The notes beneath the pieces are model-generated. The model was not told the origin of the DNA, ran no database searches, and worked only from the letters and a program-made list of their open reading frames with translations. The position numbers and the translations under genes were made by a program. From Deltaproteobacteria bacterium (GTDB taxonomy: Bacteria; Lernaellota; Lernaellaia; JACKCT01), in contig JACKCT010000001.1 of assembly GCA_020633895.1 (NCBI GenBank), positions 462,130 to 526,129 on the forward strand: a stretch of 64,000 bases of DNA, given 5' to 3'. Position 1 is the first letter of the stretch; every line of letters starts with the position of its first letter. Below are positions 14,071 to 49,191 of the stretch, piece by piece.

Positions 14071-14143
14071 TTCAGATCCGCGACCGTCAGGGAGCGGGTT
14101 GCCGCGACGAACTAACCCGCTTGCTGACGCGCGCGGTTCTGAA
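14071..14143. repeat. REP-like imperfect palindromic intergenic repeat, family A (short 73-bp form)
   Basis: TTCAGAtCCGCGACCGTCAGGGAGCGGGTTG...CAACCCGCttgctgaCGcgCGCGGtTCTGAA; the same unit recurs at 41286..41358 and in longer forms at 21969, 46924 and 48431; sits between convergent gene ends. Confidence 0.5.
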
Positions 14144-36531: not shown

Positions 36532-36891
<360 letters not shown>

Positions 36892-36950
36892 CAATCCACT
36901 CCTGTTGCCCGTCACGGCGATCGTGACGGGGCTTGGGTTCACGACAGTTT

Positions 36951-38228
36951 TTACGGCGCGACCGACGCCGGCGGATCGCTCGCCGTGGCGAGTTCCTCGA
37001 CCCATTCCTGAAGCGACGTTCCGCCTTCCTCGATTTCGAAATAGGTGTCCGACGTGGACGGCGCATGGCCGGTGCCTTCGATGAAGAACGTGGACCAGCG
37101 GCCCGTCGGCTCGAGCAGGTTGTCGCGCAAATCCTCCAGACCCGCCGCGTACGCCTCGCCGGTGATCGGATCGCCGACCTGGAAGAAGTCGCGAATCGTC
37201 TCGTCCTCCAGGTACGAATACAGGCCGAAGGTGCTGTTCGGGTATTCCGTCGCGTTGTACTTCTGGATGTTCTCCAAGCCGTCGAACTTCGTGCCGCAGT
37301 CATCGCAGCCGGGCGGGGGCACGACGTTCCACAAGGAGCGCAGGCCGAATTGCAGCACCGGGCTGAGCACGTCGTTGTCGGCCGGCAGGGGAGCCGAGTC
37401 GTTGAAGACGTTCACGTCGTTGCCCGGGAACGCCTGGGCGAATTCCAGGAATCCCAAGTTGGTGCCGAAGCCGCCGGCACTCTGGCCGATCAGGAAGACC
37501 GTCTGTACGCCGTCGAAATACTCGCCGAGCAGGTCGGCGATGTTGCGGATGTTGATCAGGCCGACGAACTGCTGCTTGCCGGAGGCGCCTTTGATTTCCA
37601 CATCGGTCGCATTGCCCGAATGCACGTCGCCGGTGCAGTAGGGGACAAAGACATTGTGCCAACCGGAAAGCGCGCTCGTCTCGGCCGCCGCCGCGCCGCC
37701 GTCGGCGAAGACGCCCTTGGTCAGCTCCCCGGACTTGGCGGAGGTGAATTCGGGTTCGCCGAATTTTTTGGGATTGCCCGCGCAAGTGCCCGCGTCAAAA
37801 CAGGCGCCGCCACCCTGCATGAAGATCATCAGCTTGTTGGCGTTTTCCTGCAGACGCACGGCGATGCCGGTCGCCGATCCGTCGCGGCAGATGTTGCCGG
37901 GCACCGGCAGCCAGACCCACTCGCCCGCGTTTTCATCCGCGTCGGCAAACGGTCCGCCCACCGGGAAGAACGGCGCCTCGGCCGTGTCGTCGTCGCCGGT
38001 GTCGTCATCCGCGGTGTCGTCATCGGACGTATCGTCGTCGTCGGTGTCGTCGTCATCGTCATCATCGGTGATGTCGTCGTCGCCGGTGTCGTCATCGATG
38101 GACGAACTGCTGTCGTCGTCGTCATCATCGTCGCCGCAGGCCGCGCCGGCGATAGCCAGCATCAACAAGGCCGACAGGACGAATAGCAAGAACCATAAAC
38201 GGCGCTCGGCGCCAGGGGAACGTCTCAT
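36951..38228 (-). CDS. pectin acetylesterase / Notum-like (PAE family) esterase lipoprotein with Asp-rich N-terminal linker
   Basis: Lipobox AGAACGDDDDDD; GGGACFDAGTC, YCTGDVHSGN and GQSAGG (nucleophile Ser) motifs typical of the PAE/Notum alpha/beta-hydrolase family; AGGAG RBS. Confidence 0.7.
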   Translation of the reverse strand: MRRSPGAERRLWFLLFVLSALLMLAIAGAACGDDDDDDDSSSSIDDDTGDDDITDDDDDDDTDDDDTSDDDTADDDTGDDDTAEAPFFPVGGPFADADENAGEWVWLPVPGNICRDGSATGIAVRLQENANKLMIFMQGGGACFDAGTCAGNPKKFGEPEFTSAKSGELTKGVFADGGAAAAETSALSGWHNVFVPYCTGDVHSGNATDVEIKGASGKQQFVGLINIRNIADLLGEYFDGVQTVFLIGQSAGGFGTNLGFLEFAQAFPGNDVNVFNDSAPLPADNDVLSPVLQFGLRSLWNVVPPPGCDDCGTKFDGLENIQKYNATEYPNSTFGLYSYLEDETIRDFFQVGDPITGEAYAAGLEDLRDNLLEPTGRWSTFFIEGTGHAPSTSDTYFEIEEGGTSLQEWVEELATASDPPASVAP

Positions 38229-38401: not shown

Positions 38402-39649
38402 CTACGGCCCGACGGACGCCGGCGGCTGGTTGAGCGTGGGCGTGGCCAGCTCCGAAACCCAATCGGTGAGCATCTTGTCGCCCACTTCCATGGTGAAGTA
38501 TTCAGGCGAGGTCACGATGCCGTGGCCGGTGCCCGGCGCGATGTACACGGACCACTGCTCGGTGTCCTTGAGGACGTTGTTGCGCAGGTCGACCAGGGAA
38601 TTCTCATAAGCGTTGGCGTCGATGGCCACATCCTCGCCGTAGAGATTGCGCATCGTTTCGTCACCGGCGTAGGAGAACAGGCCGAAGGTGCTCTCGTCGT
38701 ATTCGAGGGCGATGAACTGCTGAATGAACTCCATGCCCGAGTTGCCCACGCCGCCGGTGCAGTTTTCGCAGTCCTCGGGAAGTTCGATGCCCCACTGCAG
38801 CTTGAAGCCGGTCTGCTCCAAAACCGAGAAGACGTTGTTGTCCTTGGGCATGGGGAACGAGTCGTTGAACACGCGGATGGTGTTGTCGTCGAAGGCCGCC
38901 TCGAACTCGATGGCCGCCCAGTTGGTGCCCATGCCGCCGGCGTCCTGGCCGACGATGAACACGCGCTTGAGGCCCGTGAAGTACTGGCCGATCAGGTCGG
39001 CGACATTGCGCATATTGCGGATGCCCACGTAGATCTGACGGGCTTCCACGCCCTCGGCCTTGCCGTTTTCCTCAAAGCCCACGTGCAGATCGCCCGTGCA
39101 ATAGGGGATCACCACGTTGTTCCAGTTGGCGAACTCGCTGACGTTGGACTCGGAGCCGGTGCCGTCCGAGAGGATGCCCGCGTTAAGCGACGTGTCGGCC
39201 TGCATCTGCGTCTTGCCGTACTTGGCCGGGTTGGCGTCGCACGAGTCCTTGTCGGCGCAGGCGCCGCCGCCTTGCAGGAAGATCATCAGGTCGTCCGAGC
39301 CCTCGCCCTCCTGCAGGCGCACCGCGATGCCCGTCTGGGAGCCGTCGCGGCACAGGTTGCCGACCACGGGGATCCACACCCAGTCGCCGACGTTGGCCTC
39401 GGCCTCGGAGAATGTGTCCGCGATTGTTGTGTCGTCGTCGCCCAGGTCGTCGTCGTCATCGTCGACCGTGTCGTCATCCGACGTGTCGTCGTCAGTCGTA
39501 TCGTCATCGTCCGCGGTGTCGTCGTCCGCGGTGTCGTCGTCGTCATCGTCATCGCCGCTGCTGGCGCAGGCCAAGCCCAACGCCGTCGTCGCCGCGAATA
39601 ATCCCACCAACACGATCACCCACAAAAGGGTGCGCCGTTGCCTATCCAT
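38402..39649 (-). CDS. PAE/Notum-like paralog lipoprotein with Asp-rich linker; nucleophile motif GQDAGG (Ser to Asp)
   Basis: Same architecture as 36951..38228 (lipobox LACASSGDDDDDDD; GGGACADKDSC; YCTGDLHVG) but the GxSxG Ser is Asp; GGAGG RBS before the ATG at ~39649. Confidence 0.7.
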   Translation of the reverse strand: MDRQRRTLLWVIVLVGLFAATTALGLACASSGDDDDDDDTADDDTADDDDTTDDDTSDDDTVDDDDDDLGDDDTTIADTFSEAEANVGDWVWIPVVGNLCRDGSQTGIAVRLQEGEGSDDLMIFLQGGGACADKDSCDANPAKYGKTQMQADTSLNAGILSDGTGSESNVSEFANWNNVVIPYCTGDLHVGFEENGKAEGVEARQIYVGIRNMRNVADLIGQYFTGLKRVFIVGQDAGGMGTNWAAIEFEAAFDDNTIRVFNDSFPMPKDNNVFSVLEQTGFKLQWGIELPEDCENCTGGVGNSGMEFIQQFIALEYDESTFGLFSYAGDETMRNLYGEDVAIDANAYENSLVDLRNNVLKDTEQWSVYIAPGTGHGIVTSPEYFTMEVGDKMLTDWVSELATPTLNQPPASVGP

Positions 39650-39697
39650 CCGGTGTACCTCCAAGGCGGCACTGACCGCCAAGACCATTTCATTCAG

Positions 39698-41263
39698 CTA
39701 ATTAAAATCCCGCCAGCCCTTCTTGTAAAGGTTAAACAGCAGCGGGGCCTCCAAAGTGTTCACAGGGCCGTCAATGCGCAAATTATCGTTTCCAAAGGCA
39801 AACATGGCCGAAAGTGCGCCGGGATTCAAGTACTTCGTCTTGACGCGGGGCGTCAGGCGCAACGGCTCGATGGGCTCCCGGGAGGCCATGACGAATCCCC
39901 ATTCGCCGAAGGACGGAACGAGCACGTGATAGGGATAGGCGTGCATCTCGTCCGGCGCGGCATCGGGAAACGCCGCCTCCATCGTCCGCACGATGCACCA
40001 AAAAGCCTCGGGAGCGTAGAAGGGCGACGTGGCCTGCGTGACCATCACGCCCTGGGCGGAAAGGCGCCGGGCCAGGAGGGCGTAGAATGCTCGCGAATAC
40101 AGGCGCGAGAGATTGTCCGAACTCGGATCGGGCAGGTCGACGAAAATCGCGTCGTAAAAATCCCGATCGCCCTCGACGAACGTCATCGCGTCCTGATTGA
40201 CGACACGCACCCGCGAATCGCCGAGACTGCCTTGGTTGAGGTCGACCAGGTCCGTGCGCGTGGAGGCGATCTTTGTCATCACCGGGTCCAGGTCGACCAG
40301 GGTGACGGATTTGACGGACGGGTATTTAAGCACCTCCCGCGTCGCCAGCCCGTCGCCGCCGCCCAGGATCAACACCGACTGCACCGGCGCGGCGGCCTCC
40401 ATGGCGGGGATCACGAGCGGTTCGTGGTAACGGGCCTCGTCGACGGACGAGAATTGGATGTGGCCGTTGAGGAAGAGGCGCACATCGTCGCGCCAGCGGG
40501 TGATGACAATGCGTTGGTAGGGGGTGTCCTCGGTGTAGACGACCTCGTCCTGGTAAAGCAGATCCTCAATGAAATGCACCGCCTTGACCGAATAGGCCAG
40601 CGACCCGAGCAGCACGACCATCGCCGCCGCCCATCCGCCGACCAGCCACCGTTTGCGTCCCGGCACCAGGGACATCGCCGCCCACGCGACCGCCAGGTTC
40701 ATCAGTCCGAAAACCACCGACGCCCGCGCCAAGCCCAGCACCGGCAAAGCCAGGAGAGGAAAGAGGATCGTCCCCGCCAGCGCGCCCAGGTAGTCCAATG
40801 CCAGGACGTTGCTCAGCACCCCGGTGGTGTCCGCGTCCGGATCGTCGCCGGAGAGGATGCGCACCAGGATCGGGATCTCCGCACCGATCAGCAGGCCGAG
40901 CACGGCGCATAGGCCGTAGAAGAAAACCGGGAACCACGGGTCGAAGAAAGCCGAGAACGCGAAGACGCTCATCGAACTGGTGCCGCCGACGACGCCGAGC
41001 CAGATTTCGATAGATACGAAGCGGCGCAGCAAATGTTTGCGGATGAATTGGGCCAGATACGATCCCGCGCCCATGGACGACAGAAAGACACCGATGACCA
41101 GGGAGAACTGCGTGACGGCGTCACCGCGCAGATAGCTGGAAATGGCCCCGGCGACCAACTCGTAGACCAGACCGCACGCCGCGACGACGAAGACCGTCGC
41201 CAGCAGGATCATGCGGCGGCGATTGGTGAGAGGCGGAGAAGGTGTGATATCGGGGGACGCCAT
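39698..41263 (-). CDS. speE: membrane-fused polyamine aminopropyltransferase (spermidine synthase with N-terminal multi-TM domain)
   Basis: N-terminal ~7 TM helices; C-terminal LILGGGDGLATREVLKYPSV...IFVDLPDPSS spermidine synthase motifs. Confidence 0.8.
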   Translation of the reverse strand: MASPDITPSPPLTNRRRMILLATVFVVAACGLVYELVAGAISSYLRGDAVTQFSLVIGVFLSSMGAGSYLAQFIRKHLLRRFVSIEIWLGVVGGTSSMSVFAFSAFFDPWFPVFFYGLCAVLGLLIGAEIPILVRILSGDDPDADTTGVLSNVLALDYLGALAGTILFPLLALPVLGLARASVVFGLMNLAVAWAAMSLVPGRKRWLVGGWAAAMVVLLGSLAYSVKAVHFIEDLLYQDEVVYTEDTPYQRIVITRWRDDVRLFLNGHIQFSSVDEARYHEPLVIPAMEAAAPVQSVLILGGGDGLATREVLKYPSVKSVTLVDLDPVMTKIASTRTDLVDLNQGSLGDSRVRVVNQDAMTFVEGDRDFYDAIFVDLPDPSSDNLSRLYSRAFYALLARRLSAQGVMVTQATSPFYAPEAFWCIVRTMEAAFPDAAPDEMHAYPYHVLVPSFGEWGFVMASREPIEPLRLTPRVKTKYLNPGALSAMFAFGNDNLRIDGPVNTLEAPLLFNLYKKGWRDFN

Positions 41264-41285
41264 TGAAGTTTACAACCCACGACAA

Positions 41286-41358
41286 TTCAGAGCCGCGCGC
41301 GTCAGCAAGCGGGTTGCCGCGACAAACCAACCCGCTCCCTCACGGTCGCGGCTCTGAA
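41286..41358. repeat. REP-like palindromic repeat, family A (short 73-bp form)
   Basis: TTCAGAGCCGCGCGCGTCAGCAAGCGGGTTG CCGCGACAAA CCAACCCGCTCCCTCACGGTCGCGGCTCTGAA; the arm variants are swapped left/right relative to the 14071 copy. Confidence 0.5.
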
Positions 41359-41385
41359 AGACCGAAGGCAAATCACCATCAAGGT

Positions 41386-41610
41386 CTACGACGAAATCAC
41401 CGCGCCGATGATGATCGCCAGGCCGATGATCACCGCGCCGACGATGAGCGCGAGGGCCATGTTCTGGTCGTCCTCGATCTCCTTGCGGATCGAAAACGGC
41501 GCGATCTTCACTATTGCCCAGAAGGCCAGGGAGAAGATCACAATGCCGATCGCGGTGTAGACCAGCGTCTGCACCAGGGGGGCGAGGGGGACAAGTTCGG
41601 TGGTGTTCAT
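41386..41610 (-). CDS. DUF350 domain membrane protein
   Basis: ~74 aa, two TM helices (LVYTAIGIVIFSLAFWAIV; ALALIVGAVIIGLAIIIGAVI); start taken at MNTTELV. Confidence 0.65.
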   Translation of the reverse strand: MNTTELVPLAPLVQTLVYTAIGIVIFSLAFWAIVKIAPFSIRKEIEDDQNMALALIVGAVIIGLAIIIGAVISS

Positions 41611-41659
41611 GGTGTCTCCTGACCTGTTCGTTCCAAGAAAACGGCGAGGCACATCGCCG

Positions 41660-41875
41660 CTATTTTCCGCCGCCAAGGCCGCCGCCCATATGGGAGCGCG
41701 TGCCGTACCATAAAAAGAATCCGGAGGGCCGATGGCCGCTGCCGTCGCGCAGGCTGATGCCCTGTTGTTCGTTGAGTTCGGACGCGCCGACGTTGAGCAG
41801 CGTCAAGGCACCGGCGAAGATCGTCCCGGCGACCATGGCGCCGATGAGAAAGGTGATCACGCCTCGTCCAAGCAT
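41660..41875 (-). CDS. small hypothetical membrane protein
   Basis: 71 aa, one TM helix, Gly-rich C-terminus; sits between the DUF350 and DUF4178 genes on the same strand; weak support. Confidence 0.3.
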   Translation of the reverse strand: MLGRGVITFLIGAMVAGTIFAGALTLLNVGASELNEQQGISLRDGSGHRPSGFFLWYGTRSHMGGGLGGGK

Positions 41876-41925
41876 GGGGACTCCTTCGACGTCGGAAAAC
41901 TGGTGTTATGCATGGGGGTTGTCCA

Positions 41926-43278
41926 TCAGTCGTCGTCCTCTTCCTCGATGTGGCCGCGCCAGGACGCGTACGACACGCCGTAGAGCAGCAGCAATGCGCC
42001 GCAGAAGATCGTCGATGCCAGGAACCACCACGGCACCATCGCGCCTTGGTAGATCCGCACGCCCACATCCGACGGCGCCCGGCCCATCGTTTCGTTGACG
42101 CCCGAGTTGCCGCCGCCCTGGAACATGATCCGATAGTCGGCGGTGCGGTCGATCCGCCAATATTTGGTCGTGCTGTGCGAGCCCTCGCTCCACGATTCGC
42201 CGCCTTCGATGCCGTGGTAATATTCCATGTCCACATCGTCCGCATGCACCAACATCTCGTCGCGCACCAGTCCGATATTCAGCGCCAGCCAATCGTTGTT
42301 GAGCTGGGGGGCGCTGATCTTCACCTTCACCACGCCGGGACGCAGGTGGAATTCGTTGGTCATCACCTCGCCGGCCAGCCGGGACGCCGCCACGGATTCC
42401 TCATGCACCAGCGATCCCTTGCCCATCACCAGGCCGAAAAGAACCGCGTTGACGATCAGGCCGGCGATCATCGCCGCCATCGCCATCTTGAAACGACGCA
42501 TTTTCTGCGCCGCGTCCAGGTGTTCGCCCAGATCGGGAAAGACCTTCTCGTCCTTGCCGGTGCATCGACGCATTTCCTGGGGCGAGACCCGGTGGCCGAT
42601 GCCGTATTCGATCTCCTTGCTTCGCTTTTCCGCTTCGTAGAACTCGCCGCTGCCGCTCTTGTCGGCAAACTCGGCATACTGAACCCAGTTGCCGATGCGC
42701 GCTTTCCAGGGCAGGGCGCCGTCGACGTAGGACAACGTCATGCGGCCGGTCTCTTCCAGGACCCACTTGCGGTTGTCGTAGGTTTCCATCGCGTCGCCCG
42801 GATCTCCGTCCACGAACGGATCGCTGGTGGGCATGACGTGCGTGGCGACCGAAAGGGTGTAGCGACCGGCGTATTCGGAAAGCCACAACGGGCCCCGGCG
42901 CGGGTTCCATAGGAGATAATCGCGGGTCGGGTCCCAGGTCTCGCCGTCTTCCACCCAGGCCAGGCGACCGATGACCTCGTAGCGCGCTCCCTTGTGCCGG
43001 AACGAGTCGCCGACCCGAAGGGCGAAGCGCCACTGGGCGTCGTCTCCCTTGGCGCCGACGACTTGCAACTCGGTTTCCGACAGATCCAGCAGGCTGCCGC
43101 AGTATTGGCACGAGACGGTCTGCGCCCGCTCCGTGACGACCGTCAGGCCCGCTCCGCAATTCGGGCAATGGATGTCCAGGGGTTTGTACTCGGGCCGCTT
43201 GCGTCCCGCGCCCAGGGCGAAACGATCGCCGAGGCCTCCGCCGCTTTCGATGGATTCATGGGCGACGTTGCGACTCAC
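41926..43278 (-). CDS. DUF4178 domain protein with N-terminal zinc-ribbon and C-terminal TM segment
   Basis: CPNCGA...CQYCG zinc ribbon; 450 aa; hydrophobic C-terminal helix; start overlaps the upstream gene's stop. Confidence 0.7.
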   Translation of the reverse strand: MSRNVAHESIESGGGLGDRFALGAGRKRPEYKPLDIHCPNCGAGLTVVTERAQTVSCQYCGSLLDLSETELQVVGAKGDDAQWRFALRVGDSFRHKGARYEVIGRLAWVEDGETWDPTRDYLLWNPRRGPLWLSEYAGRYTLSVATHVMPTSDPFVDGDPGDAMETYDNRKWVLEETGRMTLSYVDGALPWKARIGNWVQYAEFADKSGSGEFYEAEKRSKEIEYGIGHRVSPQEMRRCTGKDEKVFPDLGEHLDAAQKMRRFKMAMAAMIAGLIVNAVLFGLVMGKGSLVHEESVAASRLAGEVMTNEFHLRPGVVKVKISAPQLNNDWLALNIGLVRDEMLVHADDVDMEYYHGIEGGESWSEGSHSTTKYWRIDRTADYRIMFQGGGNSGVNETMGRAPSDVGVRIYQGAMVPWWFLASTIFCGALLLLYGVSYASWRGHIEEEDDD

Positions 43279-43904
43279 CAGTCGTCCCCCTCGTCATCCA
43301 GGCGCATCGCCGCGTATTTGAGCCAGTGGCCGCGAAAGAGCGTCGGCGGGGTGTCGTCGTATTCGACGGAAAGGTTATAGCGGCCGTCCGGGCTGGAGGC
43401 GTCGGCGTAGCGATATTCTTCGCCGATCGTCACCACTTTGGGCAGATCCCCTTCCACGCCGATGCATTTGGCCGTGCCCACTTCCTCGACAACGAAACGC
43501 TCGTCGCCGACCGCCAACCAAGCGCCCACTTTCGGAGATCGGGACGAAAAATCCTTCGGCGTGTCGATTTGCTTTTGCAGGGACAACTCGCCGTCGTCCT
43601 CGGTGAGCCACTCCACGCTTCCGTCATGCATTTCCAGGTACCATTCGTCCCAGAATCCCTCGCCGTACGAATATCGCGCCCGGCCCAGGACACAGAAGCG
43701 CCGCTGGAACAGCGACCCGGTCGCGCCTCGGTAGAGTCGGGTAAAGCCTTCGGGCAGCACGGCCTGCTTGCCGGCGTCCTGGATGCGCCCTTCGTCCCAA
43801 TAGACCGCGTTATCGCAGTATTCGCACACGAACATGGCCAAGCCGGGATTGTAGATCTCGTGGGGCGCGCCGCAGGACGGACAAGTGATGAAGCGATCGG
43901 CCAT
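43275..43904 (-). CDS. zinc-ribbon / DUF4178-like protein (shorter paralog)
   Basis: MADRFITCPSCGAP...CEYCDNAVYW zinc-ribbon N-terminus like 41926..43278; start chosen at an internal Met (ATGA overlap with speH stop). Confidence 0.6.
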   Translation of the reverse strand: MADRFITCPSCGAPHEIYNPGLAMFVCEYCDNAVYWDEGRIQDAGKQAVLPEGFTRLYRGATGSLFQRRFCVLGRARYSYGEGFWDEWYLEMHDGSVEWLTEDDGELSLQKQIDTPKDFSSRSPKVGAWLAVGDERFVVEEVGTAKCIGVEGDLPKVVTIGEEYRYADASSPDGRYNLSVEYDDTPPTLFRGHWLKYAAMRLDDEGDDW

Positions 43905-44299
43905 CAGGACGCCTCGCCCGGCTTGCGTTCGTGGCTGGGGGGCTCCATGCCCCGGGCGATGGAGGTGACTCGGTGCTCCTCGGAGGGAAGGGCGGCCACC
44001 AGACCCTCGACGATGCGCTCCCCGATGGAGGGGTCGCCGCAGGTGAACACGTCCAATGTCGCCGCGCCGCGCTCGGGCCAAGTGTGGATCGTGACATGGC
44101 TTTCGGCCAGGATCACCACGCCGGTTACGCCCTGGGGTTCGAAACGGCGGAAGTGCGTTGCGAGGATGGTGGCTCCGCCGTCCCGGGCGCAGCGGCTCAG
44201 CGTCGCCTCCAAGGCGGATTCGTCGTCCAGCAGCGCCGCGTCGACCCCGAAAAGGTCGAGCAGATGGTGCGTGCCGAGTGCGGAAGTATGAGGCATCAC
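43904..44299 (-). CDS. speH: S-adenosylmethionine decarboxylase proenzyme (class 1 small type)
   Basis: LGTHHLLDLFGVD and ESHVTIHTWPE motifs (conserved self-processing site region of bacterial SpeH/SpeD). Confidence 0.85.
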   Translation of the reverse strand: MMPHTSALGTHHLLDLFGVDAALLDDESALEATLSRCARDGGATILATHFRRFEPQGVTGVVILAESHVTIHTWPERGAATLDVFTCGDPSIGERIVEGLVAALPSEEHRVTSIARGMEPPSHERKPGEAS

Positions 44300-44481
44300 G
44301 TCAGTTCGAGCGATCTATCGTTGGCGGTGAAATCCTGCGATTCCTCTTACGGATACACGAATCGGGCGTGCCTTGCCAGTCCAAAGATCCCTTGGATTTA
44401 TCCCGCCCGTCGGATACCGTGATCCGGCGGCGCGGATGTCGCGAAAAATCACCCATAGACTTCATCGAAAGCGAGGGGGCC

Positions 44482-44718
44482 ATGAGCGAACCGAAGATTG
44501 CGGCGAAGATGCCGGCGGTGTTGGACTTGGAAGCGGGCGACTACAAATGGTGCGCGTGCGGCATGTCGGCCAACCAGCCTTTTTGCGACGGCTCCCACGC
44601 CGGGTCGGGGATGTTCCCCATGCCGGTCAAAATCGAAGCCCCCAAGAAGGTCGCCCTCTGCCAATGCAAGCACTCGGCGAACAAACCCTTCTGCGACGGG
44701 ACGCACTCGGGGTTGTAG
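44482..44718 (+). CDS. CDGSH iron-sulfur domain protein (two CDGSH-type motifs)
   Basis: 78 aa with CACGMSANQPFCDGSH and CQCKHSANKPFCDGTH; the longer ORF-track N-terminal extension is not supported. Confidence 0.8.
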   Translation: MSEPKIAAKMPAVLDLEAGDYKWCACGMSANQPFCDGSHAGSGMFPMPVKIEAPKKVALCQCKHSANKPFCDGTHSGL

Positions 44719-44841
44719 AGCCACGGCCAATCAGGGTGCCACACTTTCACGGCGCGGTACGCAGCGGGAAGGTGTGAATTTCTGAGCCGCAACCTGTAGG
44801 GAGCGCGTTGGTCCGACCAGACAAACCTGGTCGATCCGACC

Positions 44842-45684
44842 CTAATTCCCCGCCCAGAACGACCGCACACTTTTGTCGTGGTCGTGGATGTATTGGCCGA
44901 TGCGGCGGAAGCGCTCGTCTTCGTCGGTGGAGATCGGCCCGTCTTTCAGGGCCATGAGGGCTTCGTCGACCTGGGCCGCGTCGGCCGGGCCGGACATGCA
45001 CACGTCGATGTCCGGGTTGCTCAAAGCGAATCGATAGCAGTCCCGCCCGCGCAGCGGCGTTTCGCCGTCGGGCACCGCCTTGGGATCGAGCAGCGAACCC
45101 CAGCGCGTCGCCGTGTACGCCACCGTCCCCGGCCGCTCCAACCCGGCCGCCGCCAGCGCGTCCTTCATCGGCGGAAACGTATCCCGCTCCGCCCCCGTAT
45201 GCACCGCGTTGTAGCGAATTTGCAGGATGTCGTAATCCCGTGTCTTGGCGTAGTCCACGAAACTCGGCCGATGGTGGCACGATACGGACAGGGCCTTGAA
45301 CATGCCTTTTTCGCGCATCCGAAGCGCCGCTTCGAGCACGCCCGCCGGCGCTCCATGGTTGTACCAGCCCAATAGCAGCACGTCCGCGTGGTCGATTTTG
45401 AGCTTGCGCAGGCCCATCGCGAAGGTCTTTTCCATCAACAAACCCGACCGGGAATAGCTTTGCAGCACAATCGCCAGCTCGTCCCGTTTTCCGGCCGCGA
45501 CCAGTTCCCGGATCGCGTCGGTCATCCCCGGGGCGCGGCGCGAGCCGTGATACCAGTAGTTGACCCCGTGGTCGAAGGCTTTGAGCAGGGAGGCCTTGTC
45601 GGCGCCGTATCCGCCGGACATGGCCAGCGGCCCCACCGACAGGCCGGATCGTCCCAAAGTTACACGTTCGGGAAAGGCGCCCAT
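44842..45684 (-). CDS. aldo/keto reductase
   Basis: MGAFPERVTLGRSGLSVGPLAMSGGYG... typical AKR N-terminus and TIM-barrel length. Confidence 0.75.
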   Translation of the reverse strand: MGAFPERVTLGRSGLSVGPLAMSGGYGADKASLLKAFDHGVNYWYHGSRRAPGMTDAIRELVAAGKRDELAIVLQSYSRSGLLMEKTFAMGLRKLKIDHADVLLLGWYNHGAPAGVLEAALRMREKGMFKALSVSCHHRPSFVDYAKTRDYDILQIRYNAVHTGAERDTFPPMKDALAAAGLERPGTVAYTATRWGSLLDPKAVPDGETPLRGRDCYRFALSNPDIDVCMSGPADAAQVDEALMALKDGPISTDEDERFRRIGQYIHDHDKSVRSFWAGN

Positions 45685-45795
45685 TTTCGTACCCCCGCAC
45701 CGAAAGTTCACAGGCCGTTGTTGACGACGTCGCGGTGATTCCCCCACAATGTCGCCCACTCATCGTATCATGATGAGGCGCGAAAGGAACCGGAC

Positions 45796-46896
45796 GTGTC
45801 CGAAAACGCCCAGCGACTTCTCGAACAGTACGCCAAGCTCAATGACGAAGAGAAGGCGTTGGTCCGCGCCGAGCTTCTGGCCCAGGCCGAAATGCGCGTC
45901 CGAGGCAACAAATCGTCCGGCGCCAACGGCTCGGCCAACGGCTCGACGTACCGTGCGACCAACGGCGCCGTCAAGGTCTCCCGGCGCGCCGCCGACCATA
46001 TCCCGTCCGGATCGCGCGTTACGCCCACGACCGAGTTCACGCCGCTCACCGACAGCCTCGTGAACTATTTCATCTCCTGCAAAAACGCCTGGTCCCACTA
46101 CATCCCGACGGACCGCTACCGGCCCGGCGACGAGGATCGGCTGGATCTTTTCCGCAAGGACACGCTGGACGCGATCGAGCCGCTGGAATGGCTGCTCAAG
46201 ACCTATTTCCGCTACGAAGCCATCGGCATGGAGAACGTGCCTCAGCAGGGGCGGGCGATCATCATCTCCAACCACGGCCTGCTGCCCATCGACGGCATGT
46301 TTCTCAACTTCGAGATCATGCGTCACACCGGTCGCTGGGTCCGGGGGCTGACCGACTGGCGCATCTATAAGATGCCGTTGCTGCGCCAGTTCTTCATGGA
46401 CATGGGCATCGTCGTCGGGACGCACGAAAACGGCGACCGTCTGCTCAACAATGAAGAGATGATTTTCATCATGCCCGGCGGCTCCAAGGAGGCTTGGAAG
46501 TCCTCCAAATTCCGCTATCGCCTCCTGTGGGACGGGCGCTACGGATTCATCAAGATGGCCCTGCGCAATCAAGCGCCGATCATCCCCTCGGCCAACGTGG
46601 GCACCGACGACACCTACCACGTCTTCTTCGACGGTTACACGACGGCCTACAAGGTCTTCCGTTCCAAGAAGGTGCTGCTGCCCATTAGCTTGCCGATCGG
46701 CCTGGGGGTGTTGCCGATGCCGGTGAAGATGAAGCAGTACATCGGCGAGCCCATCTATCTGCCGTATCCGCCCGAGGCCGCCGACGATCAGGAAGTCGTC
46801 AAGGAGTGCCAACGCCTGGTGAAGGGGCGTGTCTACGAGCTGATCGACCGGGGCCTGCGCGAACGCGAAGAAACCATGCTCAATCGATTTATTTAG
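45796..46896 (+). CDS. lysophospholipid/glycerol acyltransferase family protein (PlsC-like) with N-terminal NG(S/A)-repeat extension
   Basis: SNHGLLPIDG (HxxxxD-like acyltransferase motif) and IMPGGSKE (FPEG-like) motifs; N-terminal SSGANGSANGS repeat resembling the megaprotein linkers. Confidence 0.65.
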   Translation: MSENAQRLLEQYAKLNDEEKALVRAELLAQAEMRVRGNKSSGANGSANGSTYRATNGAVKVSRRAADHIPSGSRVTPTTEFTPLTDSLVNYFISCKNAWSHYIPTDRYRPGDEDRLDLFRKDTLDAIEPLEWLLKTYFRYEAIGMENVPQQGRAIIISNHGLLPIDGMFLNFEIMRHTGRWVRGLTDWRIYKMPLLRQFFMDMGIVVGTHENGDRLLNNEEMIFIMPGGSKEAWKSSKFRYRLLWDGRYGFIKMALRNQAPIIPSANVGTDDTYHVFFDGYTTAYKVFRSKKVLLPISLPIGLGVLPMPVKMKQYIGEPIYLPYPPEAADDQEVVKECQRLVKGRVYELIDRGLREREETMLNRFI

Positions 46897-46923
46897 CCGT
46901 TACATCGTGGCGCTCCGTATCCT

Positions 46924-47058
46924 TCAGAGCCGCGACCGTAAGGGAGCGGGTTGGCCCAACCCGGCACGATCTCTCGATGACCGGGCTGACGACGGAACCA
47001 ACCGCCCCCGTCCGGTTTCCCAGATTCGACCCCAACCGCTCCACCGGTCTTTCACAAA
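46924..47058. repeat. REP-like repeat family A (long, degenerate variant)
   Basis: Left arm TTCAGAGCCGCGACCGTAAGGGAGCGGGTTGG intact; right arm degenerate (CCCCAACCGCTCCACCGGTC). Confidence 0.35.
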
Positions 47059-47183
47059 AAGCGTGACATCGCCGCCACGTCAGGTGACATCGCTCATATC
47101 ATTTTCCTGACCGAACGGTTTTCAATGTTCGCGCTGCATTCCGACGCGTCGCTTTCGGCGTGTCGTTGAGGAGGAAAAAGCCC

Positions 47184-47666
47184 ATGTCCGTCTCTCGCAA
47201 AATGACCCTGCTCGCGTTCCTGATCGCCTTCGCCATGGTCGGTTCCTACGCCGCGCAGGCCCGGGCCCATTGCCAAATCCCCTGCGGTATCTATGACGAC
47301 CACGCGCGCGTCCATCAGATCCGCGAGGACATCACCACCATCGAAAAGGCCGTCACCGGCATCAACGAGCTGGCCGGCAAGACCGATGCCCAAAGCCAGC
47401 AGCAGCTTATCCGCTGGGTGACGAACAAGGAAAAGCACGCCACCAAGATCCAGCGCACCGTCGCCGATTACTTCCTCACGCAGGTCGTCAAACCGGCGGA
47501 CACCGCGGACAAGGACGCTTACTCCAAGTATCTGCTCAAGCTGGCTGATCATCACGCCGTTCTGGTCGCGGCCATGAAATGCAAGCAAAACGCCACCATG
47601 GACGCGGTCAACGCCCTCAAGGCGGCGGTCGACAAGCTGGAGACGTATTATCCGAAATCCGAATAG
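47184..47666 (+). CDS. sodN: nickel superoxide dismutase with Sec-type signal peptide
   Basis: HCQIPCGIYDD matches the NiSOD Ni-hook (HCxxPCGxY); ~130-aa four-helix mature region; N-terminus is a signal peptide with A-R-A just before His1; alternative ATG at 47160. Confidence 0.8.
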   Translation: MSVSRKMTLLAFLIAFAMVGSYAAQARAHCQIPCGIYDDHARVHQIREDITTIEKAVTGINELAGKTDAQSQQQLIRWVTNKEKHATKIQRTVADYFLTQVVKPADTADKDAYSKYLLKLADHHAVLVAAMKCKQNATMDAVNALKAAVDKLETYYPKSE

Positions 47667-47729
47667 TTCGCCCGAACACTTGGGCGACGCGGGACCGATT
47701 CATTAACGAAACGAGAGGAGAACCCGAAC

Positions 47730-48338
47730 ATGATGGGACGCTACGCGAAGATCCTGGGGATCTTTGCCCTGATCTTGGCGATGCCCGTGGCGGTTGTCGC
47801 GGCGGTGGCCAACGGCTCCAAGGCCCCCGATTTCAAGCTGACCGATATTGACGGCAAGGCCCACGCCCTGTCGGACCTGGAAGGCAAGTACGTGGTCATC
47901 GAGTTCACCAACCCCGGCTGTCCGTACGTGCAAAAGCACACCAAGGCCGGAACGATCGCCAAACTCGCCGCGAAGTACCCGGACGTGGCGTTTTTGGGCG
48001 TGAACAGCACGAACGCCGACCACAAGGACTACCTGACCCCCGAGGAATACAAGAAGTGGGTGGCCGACAAGCACCTGGTGCATCCGCAGCTTTATGACAC
48101 GGACGGGGCCGTCGGCCAGGCCTACGGCGCCAAGACGACGCCCCATATGTTTGTCGTCAATCCGGCGGGCGAGGTGATCTACCAGGGCGCCATCGACAAC
48201 GACGCCGGGGTGGTCTTCGGCAAGGACGAGGACGAAATCGTCAACTACGTCGACGCCGCCCTGACCGCCGCCAAGGCCGGCAAGACCGTCGATCCGGCCC
48301 AGACCAAGCCCTACGGCTGCTCGGTCAAGTACAAGTAA
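47730..48338 (+). CDS. secreted thioredoxin-like/redoxin family protein
   Basis: Signal peptide; FTNPGCPYV single-Cys redoxin-like active-site region; AhpC/TSA-like fold length. Confidence 0.55.
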   Translation: MMGRYAKILGIFALILAMPVAVVAAVANGSKAPDFKLTDIDGKAHALSDLEGKYVVIEFTNPGCPYVQKHTKAGTIAKLAAKYPDVAFLGVNSTNADHKDYLTPEEYKKWVADKHLVHPQLYDTDGAVGQAYGAKTTPHMFVVNPAGEVIYQGAIDNDAGVVFGKDEDEIVNYVDAALTAAKAGKTVDPAQTKPYGCSVKYK

Positions 48339-48430
48339 ATCCTTTTCGAACGCCGAAACGTGAACGCCGACCCATTGTGGGTCGGCGTTCGTTGCTTGGT
48401 GGGGATTCGATTTTTCAACGCGTTTCTCGA

Positions 48431-48554
48431 AACAGAGCCCCAAGCGTCAGCGCGGGGTTGTCGAGCATGACGTCCTTGCGAGACGCACGAACAACGAGTT
48501 TTCAACAGGGTTGAAGGGCTACGACAACCCCTCCCTGACAGTCGGGGCTCTGAA
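48431..48554. repeat. REP-like repeat family A (long variant)
   Basis: AACAGAGCCCCAAGCGTCAGCGCGGGGTTG ...~60 nt... CAACCCCTCCCTGACAGTCGGGGCTCTGAA between convergent gene ends. Confidence 0.45.
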
Positions 48555-48573
48555 ATCTTTATACCGCCCGCGA

Positions 48574-49191
48574 TTACTCCAGCGTCTCGAACGCCAGCAC
48601 CCGCTCCAGCGGCAGCCGTGCCAGGCGCTCCTTTTCCTTGCCCGACGGGTAGCCCAGCGCGATGTAGAACGAGATCACCCAGCCGTCGCCCACGCCGAGG
48701 TATTCCGTCAGCTTCTTCTTGTCGAACCCGATCATCGGGCAAGTCGCCAGACCCATCCCGTGAGCGGCGAGCATGAGATTCTGCGCCGCGAACGAGCTGT
48801 TGCGCATGGCGTAGGCGACGCGCGCCTCGTCGGTGCCGTAGGCGTATTGCAGGCCGCTCAGCGACTTTTCCGCCCGGTCCGGCGTGTAGTAACCCTGCTC
48901 GACCCAGTTGGCGAAGATCTCCTCGGCGTAGCGCTCGGGACGCGTGTCGGCCAGTACGATGACCAGGGCGCTTGACTCGCTGGCCTGCTTCTGGTTGTAG
49001 GAAATCTCGCGGATCTTCTGCCGCCGCTCCTCGTCCAGAATCACCAGGAACTTCCACGGCTGCAGATTGAACGACGACGGCGCCAGGCACGCCAGCTCGA
49101 TAAGCCGTTCGATCGTCTCGCGGGAGATCGTCCGGTCCGGGATGAAATTGTGGCAGGATCGGCGCGTCTCGATCGCCTCGATCACGTCCAT
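48574..49191 (-). CDS. nitroreductase family protein
   Basis: IETRRSCHNF...LQPWKF motifs typical of the NADH oxidase/flavin nitroreductase fold. Confidence 0.85.
   Translation of the reverse strand: MDVIEAIETRRSCHNFIPDRTISRETIERLIELACLAPSSFNLQPWKFLVILDEERRQKIREISYNQKQASESSALVIVLADTRPERYAEEIFANWVEQGYYTPDRAEKSLSGLQYAYGTDEARVAYAMRNSSFAAQNLMLAAHGMGLATCPMIGFDKKKLTEYLGVGDGWVISFYIALGYPSGKEKERLARLPLERVLAFETLE

Follow-up and report, generated by a model that had tools for sequence, protein, structure and literature searches.

A stretch of 64,000 nucleotides (nt) from contig JACKCT010000001.1, hereafter the window, contains six co-directional genes at 39698-44299 on the minus strand, which encode, from the upstream end, an S-adenosylmethionine (SAM) decarboxylase (SpeH), two proteins with a zinc (Zn) ribbon and a DUF4178 domain (DUF4178-A and DUF4178-B), a small membrane protein, a DUF350 protein and a spermidine synthase-like aminopropyltransferase fused to a transmembrane (TM) domain (TM-SpeE). 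The original prediction, made before this analysis, had described a module of six consecutive minus-strand genes here. All six open reading frames (ORFs) are indeed present, and families were assigned with Pfam and NCBIfam. The same six genes, including the one of only 71 aa, are called in the NCBI annotation of the matching record JACKCU010000023.1 (GCA_020633875.1) of a metagenome-assembled genome (MAG), and the G+C content at third codon positions (GC3) is 0.78-0.91 across all module ORFs, which is the range of real genes. Several stop/start overlaps had also been predicted. Two of them exist, of 1 nt between speH and DUF4178-A (TGATG) and of 4 nt between DUF4178-A and DUF4178-B (GTGA), whereas at the other three junctions the genes lie 50, 49 and 122 nt apart (Table 1).

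The six genes and their products

SpeH matches PF02675 with 117 bits (cutoff 25) and TIGR03330 with 123.4 bits (cutoff 75.65), and it aligns to the solved class 1b SAM decarboxylases (AdoMetDCs) 2iii (E = 1.2e-26) and 1tlu. Both LAESHxxIHTWPE, which holds the ESH processing site, and TCGD are conserved with respect to 2iii, and the segment LAESHVTIHTWPE as well as FTCGD match this solved protein column for column. The roles of the Glu-Ser self-processing site (pyruvoyl group) and of the conserved His and Cys are presumably those of the Thermotoga maritima AdoMetDC. By family and catalytic motifs, SpeH is a class 1b AdoMetDC, and as such it would decarboxylate SAM. It should be noted that neofunctionalised SpeD homologues, which decarboxylate ornithine or arginine, exist (PMC10407285).

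TM-SpeE matches NF002956/PRK03612 with 601.4 bits (cutoff 472), its residues 11-519 lying on profile positions 13-520 of 522, and it has at least 7,982 relatives at E <= 1e-10. Its identity is about 60% where that of DUF4178-B is about 42% in the same family comparison. In the AlphaFold2 (AF2) model, with a mean predicted local distance difference test score (pLDDT) of 91, a half-MFS-like helical domain (residues 14-237) is followed by a complete PABS/spermidine synthase fold (residues 240-521). The membrane domain, for which about 280 aa had been predicted, measures about 235 aa. It folds like half of a transporter of the major facilitator superfamily (MFS), with the six helices of such a half and an additional hydrophobic one, and its top MFS structural neighbours include the choline/ethanolamine carrier FLVCR, SPNS2, Spinster and LtaA. 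The positions for catalysis and for binding of decarboxylated SAM (dcSAM), namely GGGDG, D324/D326, D358 and D376-L-P-D379-P, are invariant in the family. Conservation is no weaker in the membrane domain than in the catalytic one. Since many invariant polar residues lie inside its helices (Y34, S43, Y44, T51, Q52, S54, E129, R135, D157, Y158, R180, S182 and N189), the membrane domain is regarded as functional rather than as a mere anchor. The gate loop after DLPDP reads SSDNLSRLY, unlike the canonical motif DPxGPA.

As for the topology of TM-SpeE, its hydropathy gives seven hydrophobic segments, and the family-wide Lys+Arg counts per loop are 1.95 / 0.03 / 2.92 / 0.03 / 2.14 / 1.0 / 2.84, then 0.78 after the last helix. 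This alternation points to seven TM helices with the N-terminus inside and the C-terminus outside, which would place the catalytic domain in the periplasm. The EXIT beta-lactamase fusions to Mycobacterium tuberculosis Rv2601 are uninformative in this respect, for none of the 35 fusions in the input, loop fusions included, was enriched.

DUF4178-A and DUF4178-B score 65.4 and 60.5 bits against PF13785 (gathering cutoff 25). They are paralogous (25% identity over 175 aa, E = 8e-08), and both carry a CPxCG...CxYC(G/D) ribbon. According to the AF2 model of DUF4178-B (pLDDT 86), the Zn ribbon and the DUF4178 domain (residues 1-240, with a beta-rich domain at 91-230) are followed by TM1 (255-285), a beta-sandwich (288-410) with the invariant motif YYHGxEGGESWSEG, TM2 (416-441) and an acidic tail. 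Since Lys and Arg flank the cytoplasmic ends of both TM helices, the sandwich is predicted to be extracytoplasmic. A functional lead for the DUF4178 pair is not provided by any solved structure. This 450-aa architecture constitutes a conserved family, the best non-self match being 46% identical.

The ORF of the small membrane protein has a GC3 of 0.78 and a strong ribosome-binding site, GAAGGAG, before its ATG. The protein begins with a TM helix or signal anchor, contains a GISLRxxS motif and ends in RSHxGGGxxGGK-COOH with an invariant terminal Lys (GGK protein below). A word-indexed homologue search with the 71-aa ORF returned only itself, whereas an exhaustive HMMER search among 1.84e9 cluster representatives found 30 further relatives of 64-132 aa, and nearly all alignments span both C-termini. 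A Gly-rich stretch closed by the terminal Lys, R(S/T)HxGGGxxxGK-COOH, is present in 30/30 of these library relatives and in 37/37 aligned copies from related loci. The 67-aa protein of Desulfonema magnum has a lipobox (LSISGC), but only 1 of the 37 aligned copies has one. Because of the signal anchor in the window, this lipobox and a LipoSIG-bearing low-complexity protein in the same slot in Shewanella, the Gly-rich tail is very probably extracytoplasmic.

The DUF350 ORF is likewise preceded by a strong ribosome-binding site, CAGGAGA, and its product passes the PF03994 cutoff of 26 bits on profile positions 4-66 of 133, that is, on about half of the profile. An alignment of 55 orthologues displays two TM helices and the invariant loop PFSxRKEIEEDQN. 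On this evidence, the protein corresponds to a single 2-TM repeat of the Pfam model, while YjfL of Escherichia coli presumably contains two such repeats.

Table 1. Features of the module and its immediate flank in the window (aa, amino acids; res, residues).
Feature	Position	Strand	Length and start	Assignment or basis
speH	43904-44299	-	131 aa	class 1b pyruvoyl SAM decarboxylase; PF02675 E=5.5e-34, TIGR03330
DUF4178-A	43275-43904	-	209 aa, ATG at 43904	Zn ribbon + DUF4178; PF13785 E=7.8e-18
DUF4178-B	41926-43278	-	450 aa, GTG start	Zn ribbon + DUF4178; PF13785 E=2.5e-16
Predicted extracytoplasmic beta-sandwich of DUF4178-B (res 288-410)	42049-42417	-		AF2 secondary structure
Small membrane protein (GGK protein)	41660-41875	-	71 aa	no family match
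DUF350/YjfL-type 2-TM protein	41386-41610	-	74 aa from ATG	PF03994 49.6 bits
REP-like intergenic palindromic repeat	41264-41385	-		between DUF350 and TM-speE
TM-SpeE, membrane-fused aminopropyltransferase	39698-41263	-	521 aa	NF002956/PRK03612 601 bits
Secreted PAE-like esterase, poly-Asp linker	38402-39688	-		PF03283 E=5e-21

Recurrence in genomes and metagenomes

Then, does the module occur elsewhere? Two sets of related loci were collected. The first is anchored on DUF4178-B and comprises 66 genome loci, with one genome per species scanned and the loci annotated by phmmer with the window proteins. The second is anchored on TM-SpeE and comprises 80 metagenome loci with 42-60% identity, 37 of which have at least 3.5 kb of upstream sequence. 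DUF4178-A is found in 64 of the 66 genome loci, TM-SpeE in 56, DUF350 in 54 and speH in 15. Where at least 2.6 kb is available downstream of DUF4178-B, TM-SpeE is present in 47/48 loci and DUF350 in 43/48. Likewise, the 37 metagenome loci include DUF4178 in 30, DUF350 in 30 and speH in 23, with TM-SpeE standing alone in 7, and the exact order speH-A-B-DUF350-SpeE is seen in many of the TM-SpeE-anchored loci. The hosts of the genome loci belong to Desulfobacterales, KSB3/Moduliflexus, Thermoanaerobaculia/Acidobacteriota, Myxococcota, Leptospiraceae and others. The arrangement is thus far beyond chance, and speH is a variable member of it. The original prediction had regarded the gene set as a recurring neighbourhood, to be checked by gene-neighbourhood analysis across genomes and to be given up if these families did not co-occur in other genomes. 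They clearly do, from whichever of the two anchors the count is made.

The DUF4178 pair varies among the loci in an informative way. In about 35 genome loci, DUF4178-A and DUF4178-B are separate, translationally coupled genes, and in 27 loci, mainly of Myxococcota and Leptospiraceae, a single fused ORF of about 640 aa is present (29 ORFs in total). Because one fused protein is found in these other lineages, A and B probably act as one unit. The unfused DUF4178-A ends in a conserved tail, LDDEGxxW-COOH (alignment of 36 orthologues), and the unfused DUF4178-B carries a GRxRPxY motif ahead of its Zn ribbon. Both motifs are lost in the fused proteins, with the exception of locus L040, which is apparently a recent fusion. 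In a divergent soil clade of metagenome loci (L086-L147), where speH is usually directly upstream, both terminal motifs are swapped together, being replaced by NLRxFEGW(S)-COOH in DUF4178-A and by a Pro-rich PKPQxKAL segment. From these motifs we infer that the LDDEGxxW tail of A may dock on GRxRPxY of B. DUF4178-B of the soil clade also carries SFERxRW(A/S)ESDHP after TM2. A role of DUF4178-A as an amino-group carrier, with a LysW-like ribbon and an acidic C-terminal tail, was considered as well and is unsupported, since the tail is internal or lost in the fused proteins and ends in Trp, not Glu.

The GGK protein was matched by phmmer in 36 of the related genome loci. A scan by position and motif recovered it in 22 of the 29 loci missed by phmmer, in each case immediately behind DUF4178-B or the fused A/B protein, which gives a total of 58 loci. 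However, no GGK ORF is found in the soil clade of metagenome loci, and the GGK protein is therefore a clade-wide partner but not a universal one. Two fused DUF4178 paralogues stand in tandem in L056 (6979-11492) and L058 (7517-12083), and behind each of them lies a separate GGK ORF. Consequently, the DUF4178 and small-protein genes were duplicated as a unit. In L135 (3898-4896), a short DUF4178-B-like ORF continues through a Ser-rich low-complexity stretch into ...SIRSSSH...SGGGGGK-COOH, so that the tail of the small protein appears to be fused to the C-terminus of DUF4178-B.

The TM-sandwich-TM unit of DUF4178-B is separable. In Desulfonema magnum, it stands alone as a protein of 225 aa that has no Pfam match, and its gene immediately precedes the small ORF, DUF350 and TM-SpeE. 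This locus (L148, 5808-8554), from the complete genome of a cultured organism (CP061800.1), represents a reduced module of TM-sandwich-TM protein, GGK protein, DUF350 and TM-SpeE, with no cytoplasmic Zn-ribbon/DUF4178 part annotated nearby. Another unusual locus is that of a Candidatus Moduliflexus MAG (L006, 10001-21953, no masked N runs), the sole genome locus that has DUF4178-A/B and lacks the small ORF, DUF350 and TM-SpeE in the 10 kb downstream.

Known systems and possible function

The neighbourhood of AdoMetDC, membrane spermidine synthase-like protein, DUF350 and DUF4178 is already published (Li et al., 2019, Biochem J 476:2579; Ravi et al., 2024). Ravi et al. (2024, mSystems, PMC11237479) described operons with a 7TM-SpeE-like protein, YjfL/DUF350, a novel lipoprotein (Ctha_1186) and DUF4178, which are coupled to a CesT/Tir-PspA dyad, together with variants where a Band-7 protein replaces the dyad and AdoMetDC is present; they credit the AdoMetDC linkage to Li et al. 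(2019). What is added here is the half-MFS fold, the A/B fusion with its paired terminal motifs, the separable TM-sandwich-TM unit and the family of GGK-tailed small proteins. Judged by the texts that cite it, the description of the clusters by Li et al. (2019) includes neither the tandem DUF4178 pair nor the TM-sandwich-TM domain nor the GGK protein.

In the second group of Ravi et al. (2024), the Shewanella oneidensis SO_3765-type operon resembles the module in the joint presence of the 7TM-Spermine_synth fusion, YjfL/DUF350 and DUF4178. The order given in their supplement (PMC11237479) is LipoSIG+Ctha_1186+low-complexity, YjfL, TM-Spermine_synth, DUF2170, PspA, DUF4178 and RHH, of which lipoprotein, DUF350 and TM-SpeE match the small ORF, DUF350 and TM-SpeE of the window. 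The GGK protein and the Ctha_1186 lipoprotein can be likened by position and tail only, since both occupy the slot before DUF350 and have a Gly-rich and a low-complexity tail, respectively. The window differs from the Shewanella operon in its pair of DUF4178 genes, one of which encodes two TM helices and a beta-sandwich, in its adjacent speH and in a DUF350 protein with two TM helices as against eight.

The stress proteins of the published operons were searched for as well. With E. coli PspA as the query, no phmmer match at E <= 0.01 was found in the window ORFs, the 66 genome loci or the 80 metagenome loci. CesT/Tir-DUF2170 and RHH are absent from the ten flanking window proteins scanned against Pfam, no recurrent CesT/DUF2170 neighbour cluster exists in the related loci, and Band_7_1 does not occur in the 64-kb window. 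Therefore, the window represents a minimal, stress-protein-free variant with speH attached. In the related loci, an SPFH protein with Band_7_1 and GYF_2, encoded on the same strand as the module, is found at 13/66 genome loci (for example, L009 14298-15452) and 30/80 metagenome loci (for example, L086 4110-5168), where its gene follows TM-SpeE or precedes speH.

Other systems share less with the module. The E. coli yjfIJKLMC-type operon, the third group of Ravi et al. (2024), likewise links DUF350 (YjfL) to a polyamine-type enzyme and envelope-stress proteins; however, its enzyme is an ATP-grasp ligase similar to glutathionylspermidine synthetase, not a dcSAM-dependent aminopropyltransferase, and it has PspA (YjfJ) and is without DUF4178. 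In the canonical pairs of SpeH/SpeD and SpeE (T. maritima, Thermus thermophilus 1uir, E. coli 3o4f), the SpeE protein is soluble and unlinked to DUF4178, DUF350 or a GGK protein, and it lacks a membrane domain. In M. tuberculosis Rv2597-Rv2601, a long membrane-type SpeE (EXIT fusion sites extend to residue 495) comes after small membrane or exported proteins. Rv2601 is speE, Rv2600 an integral membrane protein and Rv2599 an exported protein. The partner families of this cluster would be DUF4247 and DUF2617, in place of the PspA dyad, and both variants were noted from M. tuberculosis by Ravi et al. (2024, PMC11237479).

What could the fusion do? To our knowledge, polyamine synthesis is the only known use of dcSAM. 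The study of 2019 is said to have found thousands of class 1b AdoMetDCs co-occurring with an MFS-spermidine synthase-like fusion, with DUF350 clustered. The AdoMetDCs were reportedly active, whereas the fusion reportedly gave no complementation of an E. coli speE mutant, and neither the full-length fusion nor its isolated domain is said to have formed spermidine or spermine. In the passage of PMC12803844 that cites Li et al. (2019), bacterial fusions of a membrane protein with an aminopropyltransferase-like domain are likewise described as experimentally uninvolved in the synthesis of spermidine and spermine. Unlike that of canonical SpeE, the substrate of the fusion family is reported not to be putrescine. 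For a second use of dcSAM, independent of polyamines, the TM-SpeE operon family is at present the best candidate, in a question that dates from 2019, and the anatomy of the module makes such a use directly testable.

We favour, with a probability of about 0.55, the reading that SpeH supplies dcSAM, that the fusion aminopropylates an amine other than putrescine at the membrane, and that it has fixed partners in DUF4178-A/B, DUF350 and the GGK protein. The genes would thus form a conserved module for aminopropyl transfer that is associated with the envelope. SpeH, as its family and motifs suggest, would make dcSAM in the cytoplasm, and TM-SpeE would pass the aminopropyl group on to an amine, other than putrescine, that is offered at the membrane or within it. 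Such an acceptor is suggested by published tests of bacterial homologues, by a membrane domain that equals the catalytic one in conservation, and by the many invariant polar residues of this domain. DUF4178-A/B would join the cytoplasmic Zn-ribbon/beta domain to the extracytoplasmic beta-sandwich, and on the strength of gene linkage, they, DUF350 and the GGK protein may serve the transferase as scaffold, regulator or acceptor. The output would probably be an altered charge or stability of the envelope, since the polyamine-type operons to which the module belongs are associated, in other lineages, with membrane-stress proteins of the PspA or SPFH/Band-7 type.

Several points weigh against this proposal. 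The link to membrane stress is drawn by analogy, as PspA and Band_7_1 are lacking in the window, and most of the genome loci have no adjacent speH. The canonical catalytic residues are all intact, which would be compatible with ordinary polyamine synthesis. In addition, DSSP on the AF2 model assigns residues 146-197 to one continuous helix, which gives six helices and places the C-terminus and the catalytic domain inside, against the outside position given by the positive-inside pattern.

In the ordinary route, spermidine or a related free polyamine would be the joint product of SpeH and a membrane-anchored SpeE, and the MFS-like domain would export or channel it, the DUF genes being unrelated membrane genes or export accessories. 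The intact motifs, the score against the NCBIfam equivalog 'polyamine aminopropyltransferase', the position of speH directly upstream and an MFS-like fold that fits small-molecule transport all agree with it. Nevertheless, we consider it unlikely, for the bacterial fusions are reported (PMC12803844) not to make spermidine or spermine, canonical speE shows no such close linkage across lineages to DUF4178, DUF350 and the GGK protein, and the gate loop departs from the canonical form. The original prediction had proposed a possible membrane-associated complex that makes or modifies polyamines, as opposed to cytosolic spermidine synthesis; the opinion on cytosolic synthesis agrees with this report on bacterial fusions, but the intact active site leaves room for ordinary synthesis.

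If the acceptor is a non-putrescine amine, an amine-bearing membrane lipid may come into question, such as the head group of phosphatidylethanolamine, with the half-MFS domain binding the lipid or flipping it to the catalytic domain, by which it would become more cationic. The strong conservation of the membrane domain, the invariant polar and charged residues inside its helices, the lipid and lysolipid carriers among its MFS structural neighbours (FLVCR, SPNS2, Spinster, LtaA), and the linkage of related operons to PspA or SPFH proteins are in line with a lipid. We give a lipid acceptor only a small chance of being right. Some other envelope amine may also be the acceptor.

A further, rather improbable candidate is the invariant C-terminal Lys of the GGK protein, which would be mono- or poly-aminopropylated by the PABS domain in the periplasm, with dcSAM passing through a pseudo-MFS channel formed by dimerised half-MFS domains. 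The seven-helix, N-in topology of TM-SpeE would place the PABS domain there, and this Lys would lie on a flexible Gly-rich tail at the outer face of the inner membrane. The small protein is anchored by its signal sequence here, as a lipoprotein in Desulfonema and by 'LipoSIG' in Shewanella. The lysine-polyamines of silaffins, hypusine and the small-protein carrier DltX provide analogies. If true, aminopropylation of a protein lysine would be new for bacteria, the transfer of a SAM-derived group outside the cytoplasm would be without precedent, and the product would be a membrane-tethered polycation. With either a lipid or a protein Lys as acceptor, a new class of envelope modification would be at hand, with likely consequences for cationic antimicrobial resistance; the TM-SpeE family reaches pathogens, for example, M. 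tuberculosis and Leptospiraceae.

The SpeE-like domain could also be a sensor or regulator that binds dcSAM or a polyamine as a signal, which DUF4178-B would relay between periplasm and cytoplasm to adjust the state of the membrane. The architecture of DUF4178-B is sensor-like (cytoplasmic domain, TM, periplasmic beta-sandwich, TM), and 'monitoring polyamine concentration' is an option offered by Ravi et al. (2024, PMC11237479). However, the PABS catalytic residues are all invariant across the family, which would be uncommon in a protein that only senses a ligand and makes this role less likely; moreover, the operon has a dedicated dcSAM-producing enzyme, and no kinase, HTH or cyclase output domain is conserved among the related loci. 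A sensory role seems improbable.

Finally, unrelated genes might lie side by side by chance or have been joined in the assembly. Nothing speaks for this beyond the origin of the window from a single MAG, and it is excluded for practical purposes, because the neighbourhood recurs in the same order in dozens of species-level genomes of several phyla and in independent metagenomes, with overlapping start and stop codons and with gene fusions that join its components.

Neighbouring genes and repeats

The spacer between DUF350 and TM-speE consists of a palindromic repeat similar to repetitive extragenic palindromic (REP) elements, which folds as RNA into a long hairpin (-63.1 kcal/mol, z = -6.4). 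Three copies are present in the window, at about 14073 (14073-14122), 41328 and 46925 (46925-46953), and no Rfam match was obtained for the spacer copy. The hairpin was considered as an attenuator of speE and rejected, since the repeat is dispersed and without an Rfam match; it is not specific to the module.

On the downstream side, 9 nt separate the speE stop from the start of the esterase, and a strong terminator-like hairpin comes behind the esterase at 38376-38353, so that this gene may well be co-transcribed with the module in this window. Such pectinacetylesterase (PAE)-like proteins were rejected as members of the module, being present in only 2/66 related genome loci. The esterase and the product of 36951-38228 (-) form a paralogous pair of secreted PF03283 proteins with long poly-Asp/Thr linkers after the signal peptide. 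Beside them, the ORF at 36532-37005 (-) has a run of about 70 consecutive Asp codons.

The other flank (44480-49191) includes a 305-aa ORF without a Pfam match (44842-45759) and a DAGAT-like acyltransferase (45796-46896). As a whole, it is a cluster of oxidative-stress flavour, with a CDGSH iron-sulfur protein (+), a Ni-superoxide dismutase (47160-47666), an AhpC/peroxiredoxin (47730-48338) and a nitroreductase (48574-49191).

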